DNA from: a virus
DNA: 64,000 bases
IMG/VR virus record: IMGVR_UViG_3300032050_009888
Span: 1-64,000 of that record
Strand: one strand, 5' to 3'
The notes under the pieces are model-generated. The model searched no databases. It had not been told where the DNA came from and was given only the letters and a program-made list of their open reading frames with translations. The position numbers were made by a program, and so were the translations under genes. Of the stretch, positions 1 to 9,174 are shown one piece after another (position 1 is the stretch's first letter; each line of letters starts with the position of its first letter).

Positions 1-2
1 AG

Positions 3-122
3 GAATATAAGATGGAAGATACATTGGAAGCTTATAAAAAATTTTATATATTAGATAAAGTAGGTGTAAAAGGATTAGATTGGAAAAAATTAAATAATAA
101 ACCCGAATGGATAAAAAAATAG
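3..122 (+). CDS. 3' end of a pyrimidine-dimer DNA glycosylase-like protein (partial)
   Basis: Manual translation EYKMEDTLEAYKKFYILDK...W...KPEWIKK* resembles the C-terminus of phage Pyr_excise/DenV-like proteins. Overlaps the next ATG. Confidence 0.5.
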   Translation, partial: EYKMEDTLEAYKKFYILDKVGVKGLDWKKLNNKPEWIKK

Positions 123-625
123 TAATTGTAGGTGCTGGCGTAGCAGGTATTAATGCTGCTACTAAATTAGTGGATAATGGTTATCCTGGAGAATTAATTA
201 CAATTATAGATAAAGGTAATGATCCTCATAATCGTTTACCTGAGGAAGTAATGACAGGTATGCTCGGCGCTGGTGGCTGGAGTGATGGTAAATTAACTTA
301 CCACACAGCAATTGGAGGTGTATTATCAAAATACTGTGGTGAGGATAAAGCAATGGAATTAATGGATCAAGTTATATCTAACTTTAGACGTTTCCATCCT
401 AAACCAGAAGAAATATTTTGTTCTGATCCACAAGAAGAACCTGATTTTATTAAACCATATTTTGGATTACGTTTATTCCCAGTATGGCATATTGGTTCAA
501 ATTACCTACATGAAATTGCTAAAGCATGGTATCAATATTTAGTTGATAAAGGTGTGAACTTTATGTGGGAAACAGAGGTAACAAATATAGATTTTGAGAC
601 TGGAGAAGCAATATTAAAAGATTAA
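107..625 (+). CDS. FAD-dependent oxidoreductase (COG2509-like), N-terminal half of a split gene
   Basis: Rossmann motif IVIVGAGVAG, GAGGWSDGKL and HIGS motifs. Stops just after WETEVTNIDF. Confidence 0.85.
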   Translation: MDKKIVIVGAGVAGINAATKLVDNGYPGELITIIDKGNDPHNRLPEEVMTGMLGAGGWSDGKLTYHTAIGGVLSKYCGEDKAMELMDQVISNFRRFHPKPEEIFCSDPQEEPDFIKPYFGLRLFPVWHIGSNYLHEIAKAWYQYLVDKGVNFMWETEVTNIDFETGEAILKD

Positions 626-633
626 TATTTATA
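625..633 (+). promoter_or_regulatory. ATATTTATA putative late promoter (first of about 24 intergenic copies)
   Basis: Overlaps the stop of the oxidoreductase N-half. The same motif precedes most structural genes (full list under findings). Confidence 0.65.
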
Positions 634-647
634 TCAAAACATAGATT

Positions 648-1028
648 ATGATAAAATTAATAGATCTATTAAATGAATCCCAATACTCTCAATTAGAATT
701 AACATCAATGGGTAAGTTACTTCTTAATTATCTTAATTCTGATGTTGAATCTGATAAACCTGAAAATTATCATTTATCTTCAAGAGATGAACAAATACTA
801 ATGGATATGGGGATGTATATTGATGGGTTATATGGAGATAATAAATTTTCTAACCTAGATATATTTGCTTTAGATATAGCATCTGGAGAATATCAAGATC
901 CACAGTTTGGGAAAAATGAAATTATCAAAAAAATTAATAGAGCTATTCAAAAAGGATGGGTAAAAATAGTACCATATAAGGGTAATCCTTTTAAAAATAG
1001 TGATTATAATGACAATGATGAATATTAA
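648..1028 (+). CDS. Hypothetical protein with MIKLIDLLNE leader (possible capsid-internal protein)
   Basis: ORF directly after an ATATTTATA motif, with an N-terminal LxE leader. Confidence 0.6.
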   Translation: MIKLIDLLNESQYSQLELTSMGKLLLNYLNSDVESDKPENYHLSSRDEQILMDMGMYIDGLYGDNKFSNLDIFALDIASGEYQDPQFGKNEIIKKINRAIQKGWVKIVPYKGNPFKNSDYNDNDEY

Positions 1029-1047
1029 TTTAAAAAAAAATAATGTT

Positions 1048-1293
1048 ATGAAAAGATTACACATAAAACTAATCAAATGGATATCCAATAAACTTGGATA
1101 TAAAATTGCAATACTCAAAGCAGCGAACGGAACAACTATAATTGAAGGTGATAAAGAATTATTACGCTATGTAGATATAACTGGTTACTTCTTTAAGAAA
1201 GAACCACTTAAAAGAACATTTCCTAAATTTGTAGAGCCTGAACCAATCAAACCATTAACCCCAGAACAGTTAAAAGAATTAGGTATTTCTTAG
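1048..1293 (+). CDS. Hypothetical protein
   Basis: Track ORF 1000..1293. ATG 1048 (context ATGTTATG) avoids the overlap and resembles the common AAGTTATG start. Confidence 0.55.
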   Translation: MKRLHIKLIKWISNKLGYKIAILKAANGTTIIEGDKELLRYVDITGYFFKKEPLKRTFPKFVEPEPIKPLTPEQLKELGIS

Positions 1294-1325
1294 ATTTTTT
1301 CTTAGATCTATAATATTTATAATCG

Positions 1326-1469
1326 ATGGGACGTATCAAAAAATACCAAACAGAAGATGAACGTATTCTCAAACAACGAGAATATAGTAAGAAATATTAC
1401 TGGTCTAATAAAGAAAAAATCGATGAAAAACTTAAACAAAAATATCACGAAAAGAAAACAAAACAATAA
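1326..1469 (+). CDS. Small basic protein, 47 aa (MGRIKKYQTEDERILKQREYSKKYYWSNKEKIDEKLKQKYHEKKTKQ), absent from the ORF track
   Basis: ATG 4 nt after ATATTTATA (1313-1321). Open frame to TAA 1467-1469. Confidence 0.6.
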   Translation: MGRIKKYQTEDERILKQREYSKKYYWSNKEKIDEKLKQKYHEKKTKQ

Positions 1470-2142
1470 TTTTATAGTTTATATTCATATACGACATGAT
1501 ATAAATGAACCGTTTTATGTTGGGAAAGGAATACCCAAACGAGATAGATCAAAATATGGTAGAAATCAATATTGGCATAATATAGTAAATAAAAATAATG
1601 GTGTATTTGAATCTAAAATATTATTTGAAGGATTAAGTGAAGAAGAAGCATTATTAAAAGAAAGAGAAATAGAATTGGATTTAAAAAATAAAGGTTATAT
1701 ATTAGCTAATATAGCTGAATGTGGTGTTAAAGCTGGTACTACTGGAATGAAACACTCTGAAGAATCTAAAAGAAAAATATCTGAAGGATTAAAAGGTCAT
1801 GTATCACCTAATAAAGGTAAAAAGCAATCTAAAGAGACATGTGACAAGAAGAGTAAGTCTATGTTAGGTAAAAAAGTTAGATTAGGTGTAAAAGATTCTG
1901 ATGAAACTAGAAAAAAGAAAAGTGAAGCTTTTAAAGGAAGAATATATAGTGAAGAAAGTAAACAAAAGAAAAATGAAAAATTAAAAGATAAAAACCTTTA
2001 TGTCTTTTATAATTTATTAAATGATGAAAAGTTTAAAGGAACTAGGAGAGAATTTCAAGATAAATTTAATTTGAACAGTGGAAGGTTAAGCCATTTAATA
2101 AATAATAAAATTTCTAAATATAAAAATTGGATAAAAATATGA
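1423..2142 (+). mobile_element. Free-standing GIY-YIG-like homing endonuclease with NUMOD3 repeats
   Basis: VYIH...FYVGKG...R...E...N nuclease motifs, then repeats GMKHSEESKRKISE, GKKQSKETCDKKS, GVKDSDETRKKKSE and a C-terminal HTH-like domain. Start 1423 or 1357. Confidence 0.85.
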
Positions 2143-2936
2143 GAAAAATTAAATTTGATACATGCATAGTAGGTACAGGTAAAGCAGGAATAGACTTCTC
2201 AGCTAAATTAGCTCAAAAGTACAATTTACCTACCGAAGTCAAGTCGACCCAGATTGGAGTGAGATTTGAAAGCCCACAAAAATACTTCCAAAAATTAATT
2301 GATATTAGCTATGATTTTAAACTATATCAAAAATATGATAACGTGTCGTTAAGATCATTTTGTACTAATAATAACGCGGCTTACGTTGCAGTAGAAGAAA
2401 CATATGGTGATATTACTTATAATGGTCATGCTAAGAAAGGTAAGGAATTTGAAAATCAAATGACCAATTTTGGTATATTAATGGAAATTAAGGGTATTGA
2501 AGATCCATTTGAATGGAGTAGAGATGTAGTACAAAAATGCCAAGCGGGATTAACTAACACAGATAATCCAATTGATTTCAAAACAACAGGAATATATTAC
2601 TCTCCATCTAGAACCCCAGGATTAACATCTGAAGGAACTATAGTATCATCAATATCAGTTCCAAATTTAGATACGTTTAAAGAAGCATTTGGTGAGTATG
2701 CTAGTTATATACTTGATTTCATTGACCAAATGAATAAAGTGTTTAAGTTTGGTGATGATTATGGAATTTATATTCCTGAGGTAAAATATTTAAGTCCTGA
2801 ACCATTAGTAAATTATAATGATTTATCATTAACTACATATTCTAATGTACACTTTGTAGGAGATGCTTTAAGTGCTCGTGGTATTACTGTTAGTGGAGCA
2901 CAAGGTATATATGTTGCTGAGTCATTACTTTCCTAA
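2139..2936 (+). CDS. FAD-dependent oxidoreductase (COG2509-like), C-terminal half of a split gene
   Basis: Motifs IVGTGKAG, IGVRFE, RSFCTN, NGHA, TNFGIL, PEVKY, FVGDALSARGITVSGAQG. ATG 2139 overlaps the endonuclease TGA (ATGA). Confidence 0.85.
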   Translation: MRKIKFDTCIVGTGKAGIDFSAKLAQKYNLPTEVKSTQIGVRFESPQKYFQKLIDISYDFKLYQKYDNVSLRSFCTNNNAAYVAVEETYGDITYNGHAKKGKEFENQMTNFGILMEIKGIEDPFEWSRDVVQKCQAGLTNTDNPIDFKTTGIYYSPSRTPGLTSEGTIVSSISVPNLDTFKEAFGEYASYILDFIDQMNKVFKFGDDYGIYIPEVKYLSPEPLVNYNDLSLTTYSNVHFVGDALSARGITVSGAQGIYVAESLLS

Positions 2937-2947
2937 TATTTATAAGT

Positions 2948-3469
2948 ATGGCTTCACTCCGTATTCTTATTAAAGAATTAATTGAAGATTTTATACTCCA
3001 AGAAATTGGGGAAGCCAATATTGAGCCTTTTCAATACTCAAAATTATCAGACGTTAAGTATTCTTTTGATTTTGATTATAAAGAAGGACATTTTAATGTT
3101 GAAGTTGATTTTGAAAAATTAGATGATATCTATAAGTCATATTATTTTTCTAAAGTACCTAATTTTAAAAATAAAATATTTTATAATATAGCTTTTAGTG
3201 TTAATGGAGATCAATATAAAGCTTCATCAACAGACCTAAAAACATTATTAAGAATAATGACCACTTTATCTATTATTATTAAAGATTTTATCTCAAATAT
3301 AGATCCTGATGGATTATATATTGAAGCGACAGACAAAGGAGATGACTTAATAAGAGGTAAATATCAAAAATCAGCTACATACCAAGCATATTTAGATAAA
3401 CAATTAGAAAAATTAACAAATTATAAAGTATATACTAATAGGAATGGGTTAAACATCGCGAAAGTATAA
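2948..3469 (+). CDS. Hypothetical protein with LxE-type leader
   Basis: ORF after ATATTTATA (2936-2944). Leader LRILIKELIEDFILQE. Confidence 0.65.
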   Translation: MASLRILIKELIEDFILQEIGEANIEPFQYSKLSDVKYSFDFDYKEGHFNVEVDFEKLDDIYKSYYFSKVPNFKNKIFYNIAFSVNGDQYKASSTDLKTLLRIMTTLSIIIKDFISNIDPDGLYIEATDKGDDLIRGKYQKSATYQAYLDKQLEKLTNYKVYTNRNGLNIAKV

Positions 3470-3506
3470 ATTTTTATAATATTTATAACTAAATATCAAC
3501 TTATAC

Positions 3507-4094
3507 ATGGGAAATTTAGTTCAATTTATTAGATCAATGGTTCAAGAGGAACTATCTGAAATGGCAGCTCCTTCATTTTCAATCAAAGTGCTTGATCAAG
3601 ATAAAGCAGAAAGACTTAAAAAATTACACTCAGGCCATTGGGTAGGCAAGTTAATGGACTTAATTATTAAGTCTGGTGAAAATGGTATTACTCGTGGTGA
3701 AGCAGCTAATGCTTTAGACATCAATCCTATGAAACTTAATGATGAGATTAAAGCTCTTCAAGACAGTGGTATTGTATCTAGAGGTAGATTAACACCAGAT
3801 AAACCAGAAAAAACACCAGGCCAACGTGGTAGAAAATCTAGTGATAAAAGTAGAGCAGGTGTTGTTAGAACTTTATTTCAGAACTTTAAAGACAATCCTG
3901 ATTTCACTCCAAGTGAAGATGATGTAACCTATGATATACCTAAAGGTTTAGGAACTGAAAAATTAGGCGATGCTGATGTTGCTAAGATTAAGAGTTCTGC
4001 TTTAGGATTAACTAAACGTGGAAGACCAAAAGTTACACAAGCTGAATCATTACATGAAATGTATTTACGTTTACAAGGTAAACTAAATGGCTAA
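3507..4094 (+). CDS. Winged-HTH / AT-hook DNA-binding protein
   Basis: GITRGEAANALDINPMKLNDEIKALQDSGIV HTH-like segment, plus GQRGRK and KRGRPK AT-hook-like motifs. Confidence 0.55.
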   Translation: MGNLVQFIRSMVQEELSEMAAPSFSIKVLDQDKAERLKKLHSGHWVGKLMDLIIKSGENGITRGEAANALDINPMKLNDEIKALQDSGIVSRGRLTPDKPEKTPGQRGRKSSDKSRAGVVRTLFQNFKDNPDFTPSEDDVTYDIPKGLGTEKLGDADVAKIKSSALGLTKRGRPKVTQAESLHEMYLRLQGKLNG

Positions 4095-4563
4095 AATTGT
4101 AATTTTAAGCTGTACAAAGTCTAAAACAGACCATAGGGCTCCAGCACAGGAGCTCTACTCAGCTTCTCCTATGTTTAGAAAAACATTAGAATACGGTAAA
4201 TCACTTGAACCGGACAAAATGTTTATTTTATCTGCTAAACACCATTTAGTTCCTTTAAATAAAGAATTAGATCCTTATGATAAGACTCTTAAGGAAATAC
4301 CTAAAGATGAGAAGGAAAAATGGGGAGAAGAAACAATGAAACAGATGAAATCTGCTGGTCTTGATCTTAATAAAGATAAATTTATATTTTTAACAGGTGG
4401 TGAATATTTAAAACCTTTTAGAAATTATATAGCTAATTTGGAAACTCCAATGGAGGGTCGTAGATTAGGTGAGCGACTTAAATGGTTAAATAGCCAAATA
4501 AGTAAGCTTAATGAAATGTTTAAACGTGTTAAAAAAATTATCCATGAGTGCTTATCTAAATAA
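4087..4563 (+). CDS. DUF6884-like protein
   Basis: IVILSCTKSK...APAQELY.S..F...ILSAKH.L...YD.TL pattern. Confidence 0.6.
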   Translation: MAKIVILSCTKSKTDHRAPAQELYSASPMFRKTLEYGKSLEPDKMFILSAKHHLVPLNKELDPYDKTLKEIPKDEKEKWGEETMKQMKSAGLDLNKDKFIFLTGGEYLKPFRNYIANLETPMEGRRLGERLKWLNSQISKLNEMFKRVKKIIHECLSK

Positions 4564-4774
4564 TTTAATAGACCTATATCTAAATGATATAGCTGATTTT
4601 GATGATAATAACTTACTAATAGCAGAATCAGTTTTAAAACCAGTTAAACAGCTTCTTACGGAAGGTAAACAAGATGAAGATAAAATATTATTAGAAGCAT
4701 TCCGTAAAAGTACCCCAGAACAAAAAATTATTTTAGAAGACTTTTTACTTTATGTAAGAGAAGGAGAGTTCTAA
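4544..4774 (+). CDS. Hypothetical protein
   Basis: Track ORF 4511..4774. Likely start ATG 4544. Confidence 0.55.
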   Translation: MSAYLNNLIDLYLNDIADFDDNNLLIAESVLKPVKQLLTEGKQDEDKILLEAFRKSTPEQKIILEDFLLYVREGEF

Positions 4775-6315: not shown

Positions 6316-9174
6316 ATGGCTAATGAATTTGTAATAAAAAATGGGTATATTTCTAAAGGAAATTCCCAATTAAGTGGCTCTTTAGATGTTAGTGGAAGCA
6401 TTTCAGCTTCATTAGGAGCAAACACAGTAGGATTTTATGGAACATCATCTTGGGCTGTATCCGCATCCTGGGCCCCAGGAGCAACACCTACAACTCCAGG
6501 TGGTTTAAACACTCAAATCCAATTTAATAGCGCAAGTGTATTTAGTGGTAGTTCAAATTTAACATTTGATTATAGTAATAATACATTAAAGTTAACTGGT
6601 AGTTTAGTCACAACTGGTTCAAATACATTTATTGGTACTCAAATAATAAGTGGCTCAATTAACTTTGGAGACGGCAGTAAAATTCAATCAATATCAGCTA
6701 GTTCAGGTGATGGTGGAGGATACACAACATTAACATTAAAACCAGATACAAGCATATTATCTGACCAATATATAGTATTAGATCCAACATCACCTAACCA
6801 TATCCATATTCGTGCTGGCGGTGTGATAGATTCATCAAGTGCTTATTTATATTTAGGTGGTGAAAAAGCAAATGTAGTTGTACAAAATTTAGATGGTTCT
6901 TTTAATGAAAAATATTGGGTTCAAATAAATGCCCAAACAGGTTCAACCCAATATACTTGGACCTTTGATGACGATGGGACTCTATTAGTCCCAGGTGATA
7001 TAACAGGAGCCGGAAACTTAGCAACGACTGGTTCAAATACATTTATTGGTACTCAAATTATAACAGGAAGTTTACTAACAACCGGCTCAAACATATTCAT
7101 TGGTACACAAACTGTAACCGGTAGTTTATTTACAACTGGTTCTAATACTTTAGTAGGTAACACAATATTATCTGGTACCCTACAGATACAAGGTGAATAC
7201 CCACCAGAAGCAGGTTCTGCATCAGTTTCTATTGTTGGTAATGTAGATTTAAATGGCTTTTTAAGATTTGACCCAGTAACATCAAACATTGACACAACAA
7301 TATCTGCCTCATACATCTATGTATCGGGTTCAACAAATGACTTATATTTTTCACAAAATGGTGTAGGATATACTAACACAACACGTTTACGCTGGATAGA
7401 AGGTAATTTATATACTGGTTTATTACATGGTGGTTTAATTACAACACAGTCATCTACAATATACCAAGTAGGTAGTGGTAGTGGTATTATTGTAGACCTT
7501 AATGCATCAATTGGTGATGATCCATATCCTACAATACAATTTTTAGAATGGAATAATTTAACCAATACTATTGATGCTTTAAGTGGATCATTTGATCAAC
7601 AGTTTGTAGCAATATCCTCCTCAGCAGGTACAGCAGTAATTAAAGCACAAGGAACACCATATGTTGATGGTGATTATAATGATTTTATTCCAATTGGTAT
7701 TGTACTTCATCAAAACAGATCTACAATAAATGGTGTTCAAACTTTCCCTGGTGTAGCATATGGATGGAAGCAAAGATCTTTTGATTTTATTAAAGCATTT
7801 GGAGCATTAAAAATTTCAGGATATGCTTTAACACCAAGTGGATCTTCAACAGGAAGTTTAGTATTAAGTGGTGGCACATCTTGGGTAGATGGTAGAAATT
7901 ATGTAGTTGATCCTAACCAACCAAGCTATATTGTAGAAGCAACAGGTATAACTACTTCTAAAATATTTAGATACTACCAATCAGGATCTAATTGGCAATC
8001 AAATTGGGGTTACAATACAAATGGAGGAGCTGGTTATGCTACAATAGATCCATCCCAATATTCAAACGCGGGTACATTAACACCTGTAGGTTCTAATAAA
8101 TGGACTATACAAAGAGTATATTATTTTCCTAATAGTGCAACAAAGGCATTATTTGTTTATTATGGAAATGCTGAATACGCCAATGAAGCAGATGCATTAG
8201 CAGCAGTAACTACTGAACCATTTACCGAAGCTCCTAATACAGCCGCCAGCTCCATTTATGTTGGTTATATGATATTAAGAAATGATGCTAATTTTACAGT
8301 ACCCGCGTCATATGAATTTTATCAAGCAGGGTTATTTAGAGGGTCCGGTACTGGTGGTGCTGGTGGAGGTGGAGCATCTACATTAGCAGGATTAACAGAC
8401 GTATCCATCTCAACCCCAGCAAATGGTGATTTGTTAATATATAATGGAGGAACAAATCTTTGGAATAACACAAAAACATTATCAGGAAGTTATACATTAT
8501 CTGGTTCATTAACAACAGATGATGGAGTATCAGTTATTAATTTAACAGCATCTTTTGTAAGTGCCTCTTCTATCACAGGTTCATTATTCGGTACAGCTAG
8601 TTACGCTTACACCGCTTCTTATTTAGATGGAGATAGTATTGTTATTAATAATAATGCTAATAATTCTATACTCACAGCCACAGGTAATGCTGATACATTA
8701 GATGCTGAATCCAATTTACAATTTGACGGATCAATTTTAACATTAACCGGAAATCAAATTACAGTTGGAAATCAATCTATAACAGGTTCACTACTAGTAT
8801 CAGGATCTTCAACATTTACAAACATAGGCCCAGCTGTATTTAGTGGTAGTGTTAATGTAACTAATGGTATAACAGGAAGTCTTTTTGGTACAGCTAGTTA
8901 TGCTTATACTGCCTCCTATGTTAATGGGATGATTACAAAAAATAACGCTGTAGCTGGTGGAACTTTTGCTGGTAATCCTAAAAAAGCAACAGTTACATTT
9001 GCCACACCATTCCCAAATGCTAGTTATAGTGTGACTGTAACTGGTGAAGAAGCAAGATCATGGATTATTGAATCTAAAGTATCGGGTAGTTTTATTATAA
9101 ATTCTAATAGTAATACTGCTTTAGCAAATAGTGTTTATTGGCAAGCTATTAGTTATGGAGAATTTAATCAATAA
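6316..9174 (+). CDS. Long modular fibre protein
   Basis: TTGSNTFIGTQ repeats, TGSLFGTASYA modules, C-terminal VTFATPF H-type-lectin-like domain. Confidence 0.7.
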   Translation: MANEFVIKNGYISKGNSQLSGSLDVSGSISASLGANTVGFYGTSSWAVSASWAPGATPTTPGGLNTQIQFNSASVFSGSSNLTFDYSNNTLKLTGSLVTTGSNTFIGTQIISGSINFGDGSKIQSISASSGDGGGYTTLTLKPDTSILSDQYIVLDPTSPNHIHIRAGGVIDSSSAYLYLGGEKANVVVQNLDGSFNEKYWVQINAQTGSTQYTWTFDDDGTLLVPGDITGAGNLATTGSNTFIGTQIITGSLLTTGSNIFIGTQTVTGSLFTTGSNTLVGNTILSGTLQIQGEYPPEAGSASVSIVGNVDLNGFLRFDPVTSNIDTTISASYIYVSGSTNDLYFSQNGVGYTNTTRLRWIEGNLYTGLLHGGLITTQSSTIYQVGSGSGIIVDLNASIGDDPYPTIQFLEWNNLTNTIDALSGSFDQQFVAISSSAGTAVIKAQGTPYVDGDYNDFIPIGIVLHQNRSTINGVQTFPGVAYGWKQRSFDFIKAFGALKISGYALTPSGSSTGSLVLSGGTSWVDGRNYVVDPNQPSYIVEATGITTSKIFRYYQSGSNWQSNWGYNTNGGAGYATIDPSQYSNAGTLTPVGSNKWTIQRVYYFPNSATKALFVYYGNAEYANEADALAAVTTEPFTEAPNTAASSIYVGYMILRNDANFTVPASYEFYQAGLFRGSGTGGAGGGGASTLAGLTDVSISTPANGDLLIYNGGTNLWNNTKTLSGSYTLSGSLTTDDGVSVINLTASFVSASSITGSLFGTASYAYTASYLDGDSIVINNNANNSILTATGNADTLDAESNLQFDGSILTLTGNQITVGNQSITGSLLVSGSSTFTNIGPAVFSGSVNVTNGITGSLFGTASYAYTASYVNGMITKNNAVAGGTFAGNPKKATVTFATPFPNASYSVTVTGEEARSWIIESKVSGSFIINSNSNTALANSVYWQAISYGEFNQ
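6613..7058 (+). repeat. 32-bp identical intragenic direct repeat (6613-6644 and 7027-7058)
   Basis: ACTGGTTCAAATACATTTATTGGTACTCAAAT occurs twice. Confidence 0.85.

Follow-up and report, generated by a model that had tools for sequence, protein, structure and literature searches.

To our knowledge, there are few enzyme genes that a free-standing homing endonuclease has divided without loss of function, and each of these comes from one phage lineage. A likely further case is described here from IMG/VR virus record IMGVR_UViG_3300032050_009888. The window that was analyzed comprises 64,000 nucleotides (nt) from the start of this 76.4-kb viral contig, which is AT-rich (GC 25-35%). Near its left end, a gene for a flavin adenine dinucleotide (FAD) enzyme resembling COG2509 is divided into two open reading frames (ORFs) by an insert that carries a nuclease gene and other small genes. 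We consider it likely that insertion of the nuclease made two genes out of one, and that the enzyme is now composed of two chains. The same event can be traced across more than 100 natural alleles.

In the explanation that we favor, a free-standing GIY-YIG nuclease gene would have inserted at a surface beta-hairpin turn of the FAD-enzyme gene and left two ORFs. The element would supply the stop codon of the N-terminal piece, fused to a promoter-like motif, as well as the ATG of the C-terminal piece, overlapping the stop codon of the nuclease. Neither RNA nor protein splicing would take part, and the two polypeptides would most likely reassemble by pairing the hairpin strands in trans. Cleavage of insert-free alleles by the nuclease would probably fall within or close to the stretch encoding LIFAVGKSGIDFAQ, and repair from the donor would then copy in the cassette along with recoded flank, about 75 nt of it upstream and 100-170 nt downstream. 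Because everything between the flanks would be copied too, the gap would have become a slot for transient cargo genes. The features of the region, with lengths in amino acids (aa), are as follows.

107-625, plus strand: N-terminal piece of the COG2509-like FAD enzyme, 172 aa (Pyr_redox_2, E value 1.1e-7; phrog_12409).
530-625, plus strand: putative upstream co-conversion tract, approximate bounds from sliding identity, common to split alleles on any allele background.
623-633, plus strand: first copy of the promoter-like motif TAATATTTATA, its first three bases being the stop codon of the N-terminal half.
648-1028, plus strand: cargo gene orfA, 126 aa, with the leader MIKLIDLLNE.
1048-1293, plus strand: cargo gene orfB, 81 aa (86% nucleotide identity to immuto35A_49).
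1311-1321, plus strand: second copy of TAATATTTATA, a motif match at the head of the endonuclease module.
1326-1469, plus strand: basic ORF of 47 aa (phrog_17714, E 1.2e-4; third-position substitutions).
1423-2142, plus strand: free-standing NUMOD3 and likely GIY-YIG homing endonuclease, 239 aa from the probable start at ATG 1423, the maximal ORF beginning at 1357 (NUMOD3; phrog_314).
2139-2936, plus strand: C-terminal piece of the FAD enzyme, 265 aa (phrog_12409; C-terminal GD motif).
2139-2300, plus strand: putative downstream co-conversion tract, approximate bounds from sliding identity, holding the recoded block CIVGTGKAGIDFSAK.

A first-pass annotation, made from the letters of the DNA, had proposed that the two outer ORFs are consecutive parts of one COG2509-like FAD enzyme, and this was borne out by a common profile, by continuous homologues and by a structural match. 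Both frames are intact in the ORF listing, and the halves align to positions 2-159 and 341-418 of the 422-position profile phrog_12409, a 'dehydrogenase' of Campylobacter phages that is a profile relative of the phage enzyme. The N-terminal piece contains the GxGxxG dinucleotide-binding (Rossmann) motif in the form VGAGVAG, with Pyr_redox_2 matches in the family at E 1e-7 to 1e-9, and the C-terminal piece has a GD motif, HFVGDALSARG, near its C-terminus. Aligned to uninterrupted phage homologues, the halves fall on adjacent segments; in MT836377, the N-terminal part ends at 4538 and the C-terminal part starts at 4596. More distant homologues from gut phages are also continuous, and there too the two parts are adjacent segments of one frame.

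When a profile of the continuous relatives was compared with the PDB, 3nlc was the sole full-length sequence match (E 0.003). The same entry was the best Foldseek match (E 1.3e-14, template-modelling (TM) score 0.52) of an AlphaFold model of a continuous relative (predicted local distance difference test (pLDDT) 73). This COG2509 structure, VP0956 of Vibrio parahaemolyticus, is like the phage enzyme in its fold, its N-terminal Rossmann motif and its C-terminal GD motif, whereas sequence identity is only about 18% and the phage family is about 100 aa shorter. The label 'COG2509-like FAD oxidoreductase' holds because of the phrog_12409 match, the Rossmann motif, and the profile and fold matches to 3nlc.

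Two scans of viral contigs yielded 158 loci, and labels such as L001 denote the loci that were fetched. After removal of duplicates, the complete distinct alleles comprised 91 that are continuous and 14 that are split; split loci number at least 17 overall, and a further five loci, truncated by contig ends, carry the nuclease module. The gene is one continuous ORF of 429-462 aa in the 91 distinct IMG/VR alleles, and the halves in the window, which total 437 aa, lie inside this range. Had the gene always been two genes, a two-gene form would be expected where the insert is missing, and none was found among these 91 insert-free homologues. Inserts in split alleles range from 0.43 to 1.5 kb, and 378 nt of the shortest (428 nt) are occupied by an ORF of 125 aa.

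The site of the break is constant. In all split loci it lies between ...EVxxIDFxxxxxxxK and xxIxYDxLIFAVGKSG, which in an AlphaFold2 (AF2) model of a continuous allele corresponds to a beta-hairpin turn between strands 167-171 and 177-181. The N-terminal piece ends in ...IDFETGEAILKD followed by TAA, within the first strand of this hairpin, and the C-terminal piece begins with MRKIKFDTCIVGTGKAG, within the second. The hairpin loop tolerates change, since its length ranges from 5 to 29 residues among continuous alleles, and it is a possibility that this variable hairpin records past cycles of invasion and re-fusion.

The junctions carry the signals that the first-pass annotation had read there. 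The TAA of the N-terminal half (623-625) forms the first three bases of TAATATTTATA, which is present in the window in seven exact copies against 0.84±0.87 expected. All copies (623, 1311, 2934, 3477, 9980, 21615 and 25974) are on the plus strand and 14-40 nt upstream of an ATG; the copy at 1311 heads the nuclease module, and the one at 2934 comes after the stop of the C-terminal piece. It is kept at the junction of the N-terminal half in split alleles with the window's kind of nuclease, here called type A, and is probably a phage-specific, perhaps late, promoter. The motif is also reminiscent of the T4 late motif TATAAATA. A scan for sigma-70 promoters, whose consensus is ill-suited to a Bacteroidota-type phage, gave 33 sites against 24±5 expected, and the terminator scan run alongside it gave none. 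At the other end of the insert, the nuclease stop and the start of the C-terminal half overlap as ATGA at 2139-2142. The ATG of the C-terminal piece is kept throughout the split alleles, also where no nuclease is present.

Both co-conversion tracts and a scattered phylogenetic distribution support the mobility of the cassette. Away from the junction, the split allele L003 and the continuous allele L030 have 91-93% DNA identity in both halves, and the C-terminal half of split allele L129 has 90% DNA identity to continuous L108; near the junction, identity in the same pairs falls to 33-67%. Near the upstream junction, L003 is 83-87% identical to the window; on both sides of the insert, split alleles are 83-97% identical to one another near the junction. 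The shared tracts extend over about 25 codons (about 75 nt) upstream and 35-55 codons (100-170 nt) downstream. In trees calculated without the flanks, the 14 split alleles are scattered in 11-12 separate positions. Long vertical inheritance of the split in clades made up of split alleles was considered and rejected, as these clades dissolved once the junction-proximal columns were removed. Such mosaic flanks are the pattern expected of double-strand break (DSB) repair copying an element into many backgrounds.

The downstream tract also points to a target. Here the stretch LIFAVGKSGIDFAQ (LIFAVGKSG), which does not vary among the 91 continuous alleles and whose DNA is very conserved as well, is replaced by CIVGTGKAGIDFSAK (CIVGTGKAG), with at least 12 fixed nucleotide differences. 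The recoded block is found in split alleles only and is absent from 91 of 91 continuous alleles. We infer that the LIFAVGKSGIDFAQ stretch is the target of the nuclease or adjoins it; because it is taken as the target, the recoded flank CIVGTGKAGIDFSAK is read as probably immune to cleavage. A different nuclease, type B, occupies the same hairpin site in L011, L015, L076, L125 (5488-6159) and L131, with a TTG or ATG start inside the last 45 nt or so of the N-terminal half gene. Its hosts keep the LIFAVGKSGIDFAQ stretch and are recoded about 45 codons upstream, where NYLHEIAKAW becomes NYLSLIAVAW (HE to SL). Because this recoding lies upstream and not downstream, it suggests that the recognition site of type B differs from that of type A.

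Sequence conservation argues that the divided enzyme is still of use. Omega is nearly the same for split and continuous alleles, at 0.11 and 0.12, respectively, in the N-terminal half and 0.19 and 0.18 in the C-terminal half. A stronger sign comes from conserved residues: of the 181 that are invariant among the 91 continuous alleles, the window keeps 177 (74 of 74 in the N-terminal half and 103 of 107 in the C-terminal half), and the four lost residues all fall within the recoded block. Whole-gene omega is weak evidence because most divergence predates the invasion, and the flank tract was used for the test instead. In the flank that is found only in split alleles, pN/pS is 0.07 (C-terminal half) and 0.22 (N-terminal half) at a pS of about 0.45-0.5. 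None of these measures gave the relaxed selection that would be expected of a pseudogene.

In flavoproteins with two dinucleotide-binding domains, the FAD site uses the GxGxxG motif and a C-terminal GD motif. The break divides these motifs between the pieces, so neither piece would be a flavoenzyme alone; because the FAD site needs both GxGxxG, in the N-terminal piece, and the GD motif, in the C-terminal piece, the two chains are expected to reassemble. From these patterns of conservation, there is a good chance that the two-chain enzyme works. Several points weigh against the explanation as a whole. Trees without the flanks indicate that most of the divergence of split alleles predates the invasion, and the signal of selection after the split comes from about 60 codons of flank. 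The C-terminal piece in the window depends on translational coupling to the nuclease gene, whose own expression may be poor. Finally, assignment of the nuclease to GIY-YIG draws on motifs, on homology to a protein with a weak PF01541 match, and on fold matches of low significance.

Other explanations account for parts of these observations. The split may have killed the gene, so that the ORFs are recent, undecayed relics of an enzyme that the phage dispenses with. The gene neighborhood of a continuous allele, which gave no clue to the role of the enzyme, would be in keeping with this, as would the many invaded backgrounds, among which some insertions may be recent. We nevertheless find it quite unlikely, as both ORFs are intact and nearly all invariant residues are kept in 14 of 14 complete split alleles. 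The nuclease has been lost from L003, L006/L009, L008 and L115, where its last 25-40 nt or so are left, and from L022, where about 12 nt are left; L067 retains no more than the 3' end of a nuclease variant, and L035 no more than the C-terminal 136 codons of the nuclease. Alleles with a decayed or lost nuclease are therefore older, and they are still split with both halves intact. Moreover, pS has reached about 0.45 in the split-only tract while pN/pS stays at 0.07-0.22. It is very unlikely that only one of the pieces is useful, for instance the C-terminal piece as a separate domain, with the other kept for its overlap with regulatory or neighboring sequence. The N-terminal piece is more conserved than the C-terminal piece across the family, so constraints on the two do differ; however, invariant residues are kept in both, both flanks have been under purifying selection after the split, and each piece holds only part of the FAD motifs.

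There is hardly any chance that the insert is removed by a group I or group II intron, a split intein or ribosomal bypass to yield a single polypeptide. Homing endonucleases often reside in introns and inteins, and gene 60 of phage T4 shows translational bypass. However, scans with permissive Rfam settings gave no match to a group I or any other intron model, either in positions 1-4000 of the window (E<=10) or in six other split loci (E<=1). The insert is almost fully coding, as first reported, being made up of orfA, orfB, the 47-aa ORF and the nuclease with non-coding spacers of 19-32 nt. Across split alleles inserts are likewise almost wholly coding and variable in content, down to the 428 nt of the shortest. 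Length bookkeeping and the conservation of the stop and start codons ruled out an intein or bypass: the halves already sum to a full-length protein of 437 aa and leave no space for intein segments, the N-terminal stop is fused to the promoter-like motif, and the C-terminal piece has a conserved ATG of its own. The earlier view that neither an intron core nor an intein is present is thus upheld. An insertion of promoter plus cargo may instead have split the gene first and been invaded later by the nuclease, an order of events that has also been suspected at gene 43 in Aeromonas phage 25, and PMC2988022 describes such ambiguity. The cargo does have its own promoter-like motif and a shared 5' leader that could be a recombination handle. 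We regard this order of events as unlikely, since every nuclease-less split allele keeps the 3' end of the nuclease directly upstream of the ATG of the C-terminal piece, L025 has the nuclease module without cargo, and the recoded flank is the pattern of a nuclease-immune allele.

The nuclease was described in the first-pass annotation as GIY-YIG/NUMOD3. The NUMOD3 part stands (Pfam E 1.6e-10), and the protein matches phrog_314, 'homing endonuclease', at E 4.7e-21. The GIY-YIG part is likely, judging from sequence and model together. A Pfam search returned no PF01541 match for the window nuclease. Its N-terminal region reads FIVYIHIR-x-FYVGKG, the R, E and N positions are conserved, and it is homologous over its full length to the type-B nuclease (30% identity, E 2e-13), which itself scores 19.4 bits against PF01541, under the cut-off of 22.6. 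In an AF2 model (pLDDT 62), the N-terminal domain has the order beta-beta-alpha-beta-alpha, and the top 13 fold matches in the PDB are all GIY-YIG proteins (PD-T4-3, I-TevI and UvrC), at E values of just 0.05-0.7; the match to I-TevI (1mk0) has a TMt of 0.60. Searches of PDB sequences with the nuclease, as a single sequence or as a profile, gave nothing useful.

More than 1000 relatives of the nuclease were found in metagenomes, and in many of them the catalytic part is shared while the C-terminus is another one, which fits a modular DNA-binding region of NUMOD repeats plus a C-terminal domain. The nuclease of L025 is a variant of this kind at the site studied here, and three nuclease variants are found in all at the one hairpin site. 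The module composed of the TAATATTTATA motif, the 47-aa ORF and the nuclease is kept in L017, L025 and L129.

The basic 47-aa ORF (MGRIKKYQTEDERILKQREYSKKYYWSNKEK...) is found ahead of the type-A nuclease in every case, and its end runs 47 nt into the nuclease gene. It is a real gene under purifying selection in its own frame, because substitutions in the overlap fall on its third codon positions (six of the seven in 1357-1466). As the substitutions in this interval are synonymous in the 47-aa frame, the nuclease probably starts at ATG 1423 and not at 1357. The small protein could regulate the nuclease or assist in DNA binding, or it could form the first part of a product made by +1 frameshifting. 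A +1 frameshift fusing it to the nuclease is the less likely option, as the start at ATG 1423 fits the N-terminus of the type-B nuclease better.

The first-pass annotation had further suggested that the nuclease mobilizes cargo genes along with itself. Co-conversion and the scattered distribution agree with the mobility; the cargo, however, is not a fixed passenger because the contents of the gap differ in almost every split allele. The gap behaves like a slot with cargo turnover, and homing would carry whatever it contains. In L025 nothing but the nuclease module lies between the halves, and several split alleles keep their cargo after loss of the nuclease. For orfA, neither a family nor relatives in the Atlas were found, and among the fetched loci it is present only in this allele. 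The start of orfB is probably ATG 1048 rather than 1000, and its homologue immuto35A_49 (86% nucleotide identity) is a free-standing gene downstream of thyA in Flavobacterium phage immuto. Cargo elsewhere includes a GNAT acetyltransferase, a protein with a weak methyltransferase-like match and several of no family, nearly all of them confined to one or two alleles. The gene for the acetyltransferase (Acetyltransf_7, E 1e-10) lies between the type-B nuclease and the C-terminal half in L125 (6135-6551) and L131 (6126-6542).

ThyA proteins are usually far shorter than 423 aa, the length of the annotated thymidylate synthase of immuto (L001, 2731-4002), which has insertions and a C-terminal extension and is next to the orfB homologue. 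The possibility that this gene is an uninterrupted version of the flavoenzyme gene was rejected; it encodes a true ThyA, and only the small downstream gene matches the cassette, at orfB.

In most split alleles the first cargo gene follows directly on the promoter-like motif and begins with a common leader, short and amphipathic, either MKK(S/T/L/Q)ELQQIIKEE or MIKL(I/V)(D/N)LLNE, that is similar at the DNA level too, while the body of the protein is unrelated and may be a GNAT acetyltransferase, a methyltransferase-like protein or one of no family. Such leaders are located in the window at 648-680 and at L008:1544, L017:3898, L129:5541, L009:4595, L022:4420, L003:3675 and L115:5783. The L/I-x-E end of the leader resembles the capsid-targeting sequences of T4. 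The leader could tag proteins for packaging, serve as a handle for recombination, or do both. By analogy, we tentatively suggest that the gap may be a nuclease-guarded exchange slot for accessory proteins that are packaged in the virion or injected, an idea that we hold as doubtful but worth stating. If true, candidate anti-defense payloads would spread from phage to phage through homing, with the flavoenzyme gene as no more than a conserved landing pad.

Insertions of nuclease genes that split other genes have been described for mobE in nrdA of phage Aeh1, mobA between genes 39 and 60 of T4, and a seg gene at gene 43 of phage 25 (PMC2988022). The Aeh1 case is credited to Friedrich et al. (2007, PNAS) in both PMC2988022 and PMC10448857, and according to PMC2988022 the split NrdA was shown to be active. 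According to these two accounts, Aeh1 nrdA is like the window in that the nuclease is free-standing, no intron or intein is involved, the gene is continuous in relatives, and overlapping frames have suggested coupling; in both, two polypeptides are expected to reassemble. In contrast, MobE is described there as an HNH nuclease, whereas the window has a likely GIY-YIG nuclease and its host gene encodes an FAD enzyme. The case in the window is also unlike Aeh1 in having one to three cargo genes, many split alleles, and turnover and loss of the nuclease. Genes 39 and 60 of T4, separated by mobA, and the gene 43 associated with seg43(25) in Aeromonas phage 25 are likewise essential or conserved enzyme genes in two cistrons (PMC2988022), and the gap in T4 holds another gene, 60.1, comparable to the cargo found here. 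While those cases are known from single lineages, the window can be set among population data, co-conversion and repeated invasion.

In their account of 'HEG-islands', Barth et al. (2023, PMC10448857) describe nucleases that sit at the boundaries of exchanged DNA, together with cargo. These islands, and the intronless homing and marker exclusion that are brought about by the T4 endonucleases SegF and SegG, are like the window in that DSB repair copies the nuclease, flanking markers and cargo. The likeness extends to a nuclease that marks the exchange boundary, to interchangeable nucleases at one site and to shuffled domains. The Seg and HEG-island nucleases, however, sit between genes, whereas the presumed homing site of the window is inside a coding sequence and the flanks are the ends of the split gene. 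On the present comparison, the case in the window would work in the same way as the known genes in pieces.

What is new here is the host gene, the nuclease family, the presence of cargo in the gap and, most of all, how deep the series of natural alleles is. This series includes the uninvaded target, three kinds of intact nuclease, decaying nucleases and a split that is free of the nuclease, which makes the life cycle of the element, the length of co-conversion tracts and the adaptation of a gene to splitting readable directly. It also provides a natural split site in a flavoprotein with two dinucleotide-binding domains and a genomic slot for the exchange of small accessory genes. The related contig L022 has, downstream of its flavoenzyme gene, a sub-threshold match to the Rfam small RNA STnc40 (6446-6518; E 0.005, 37.7 bits with a gathering threshold of 45).

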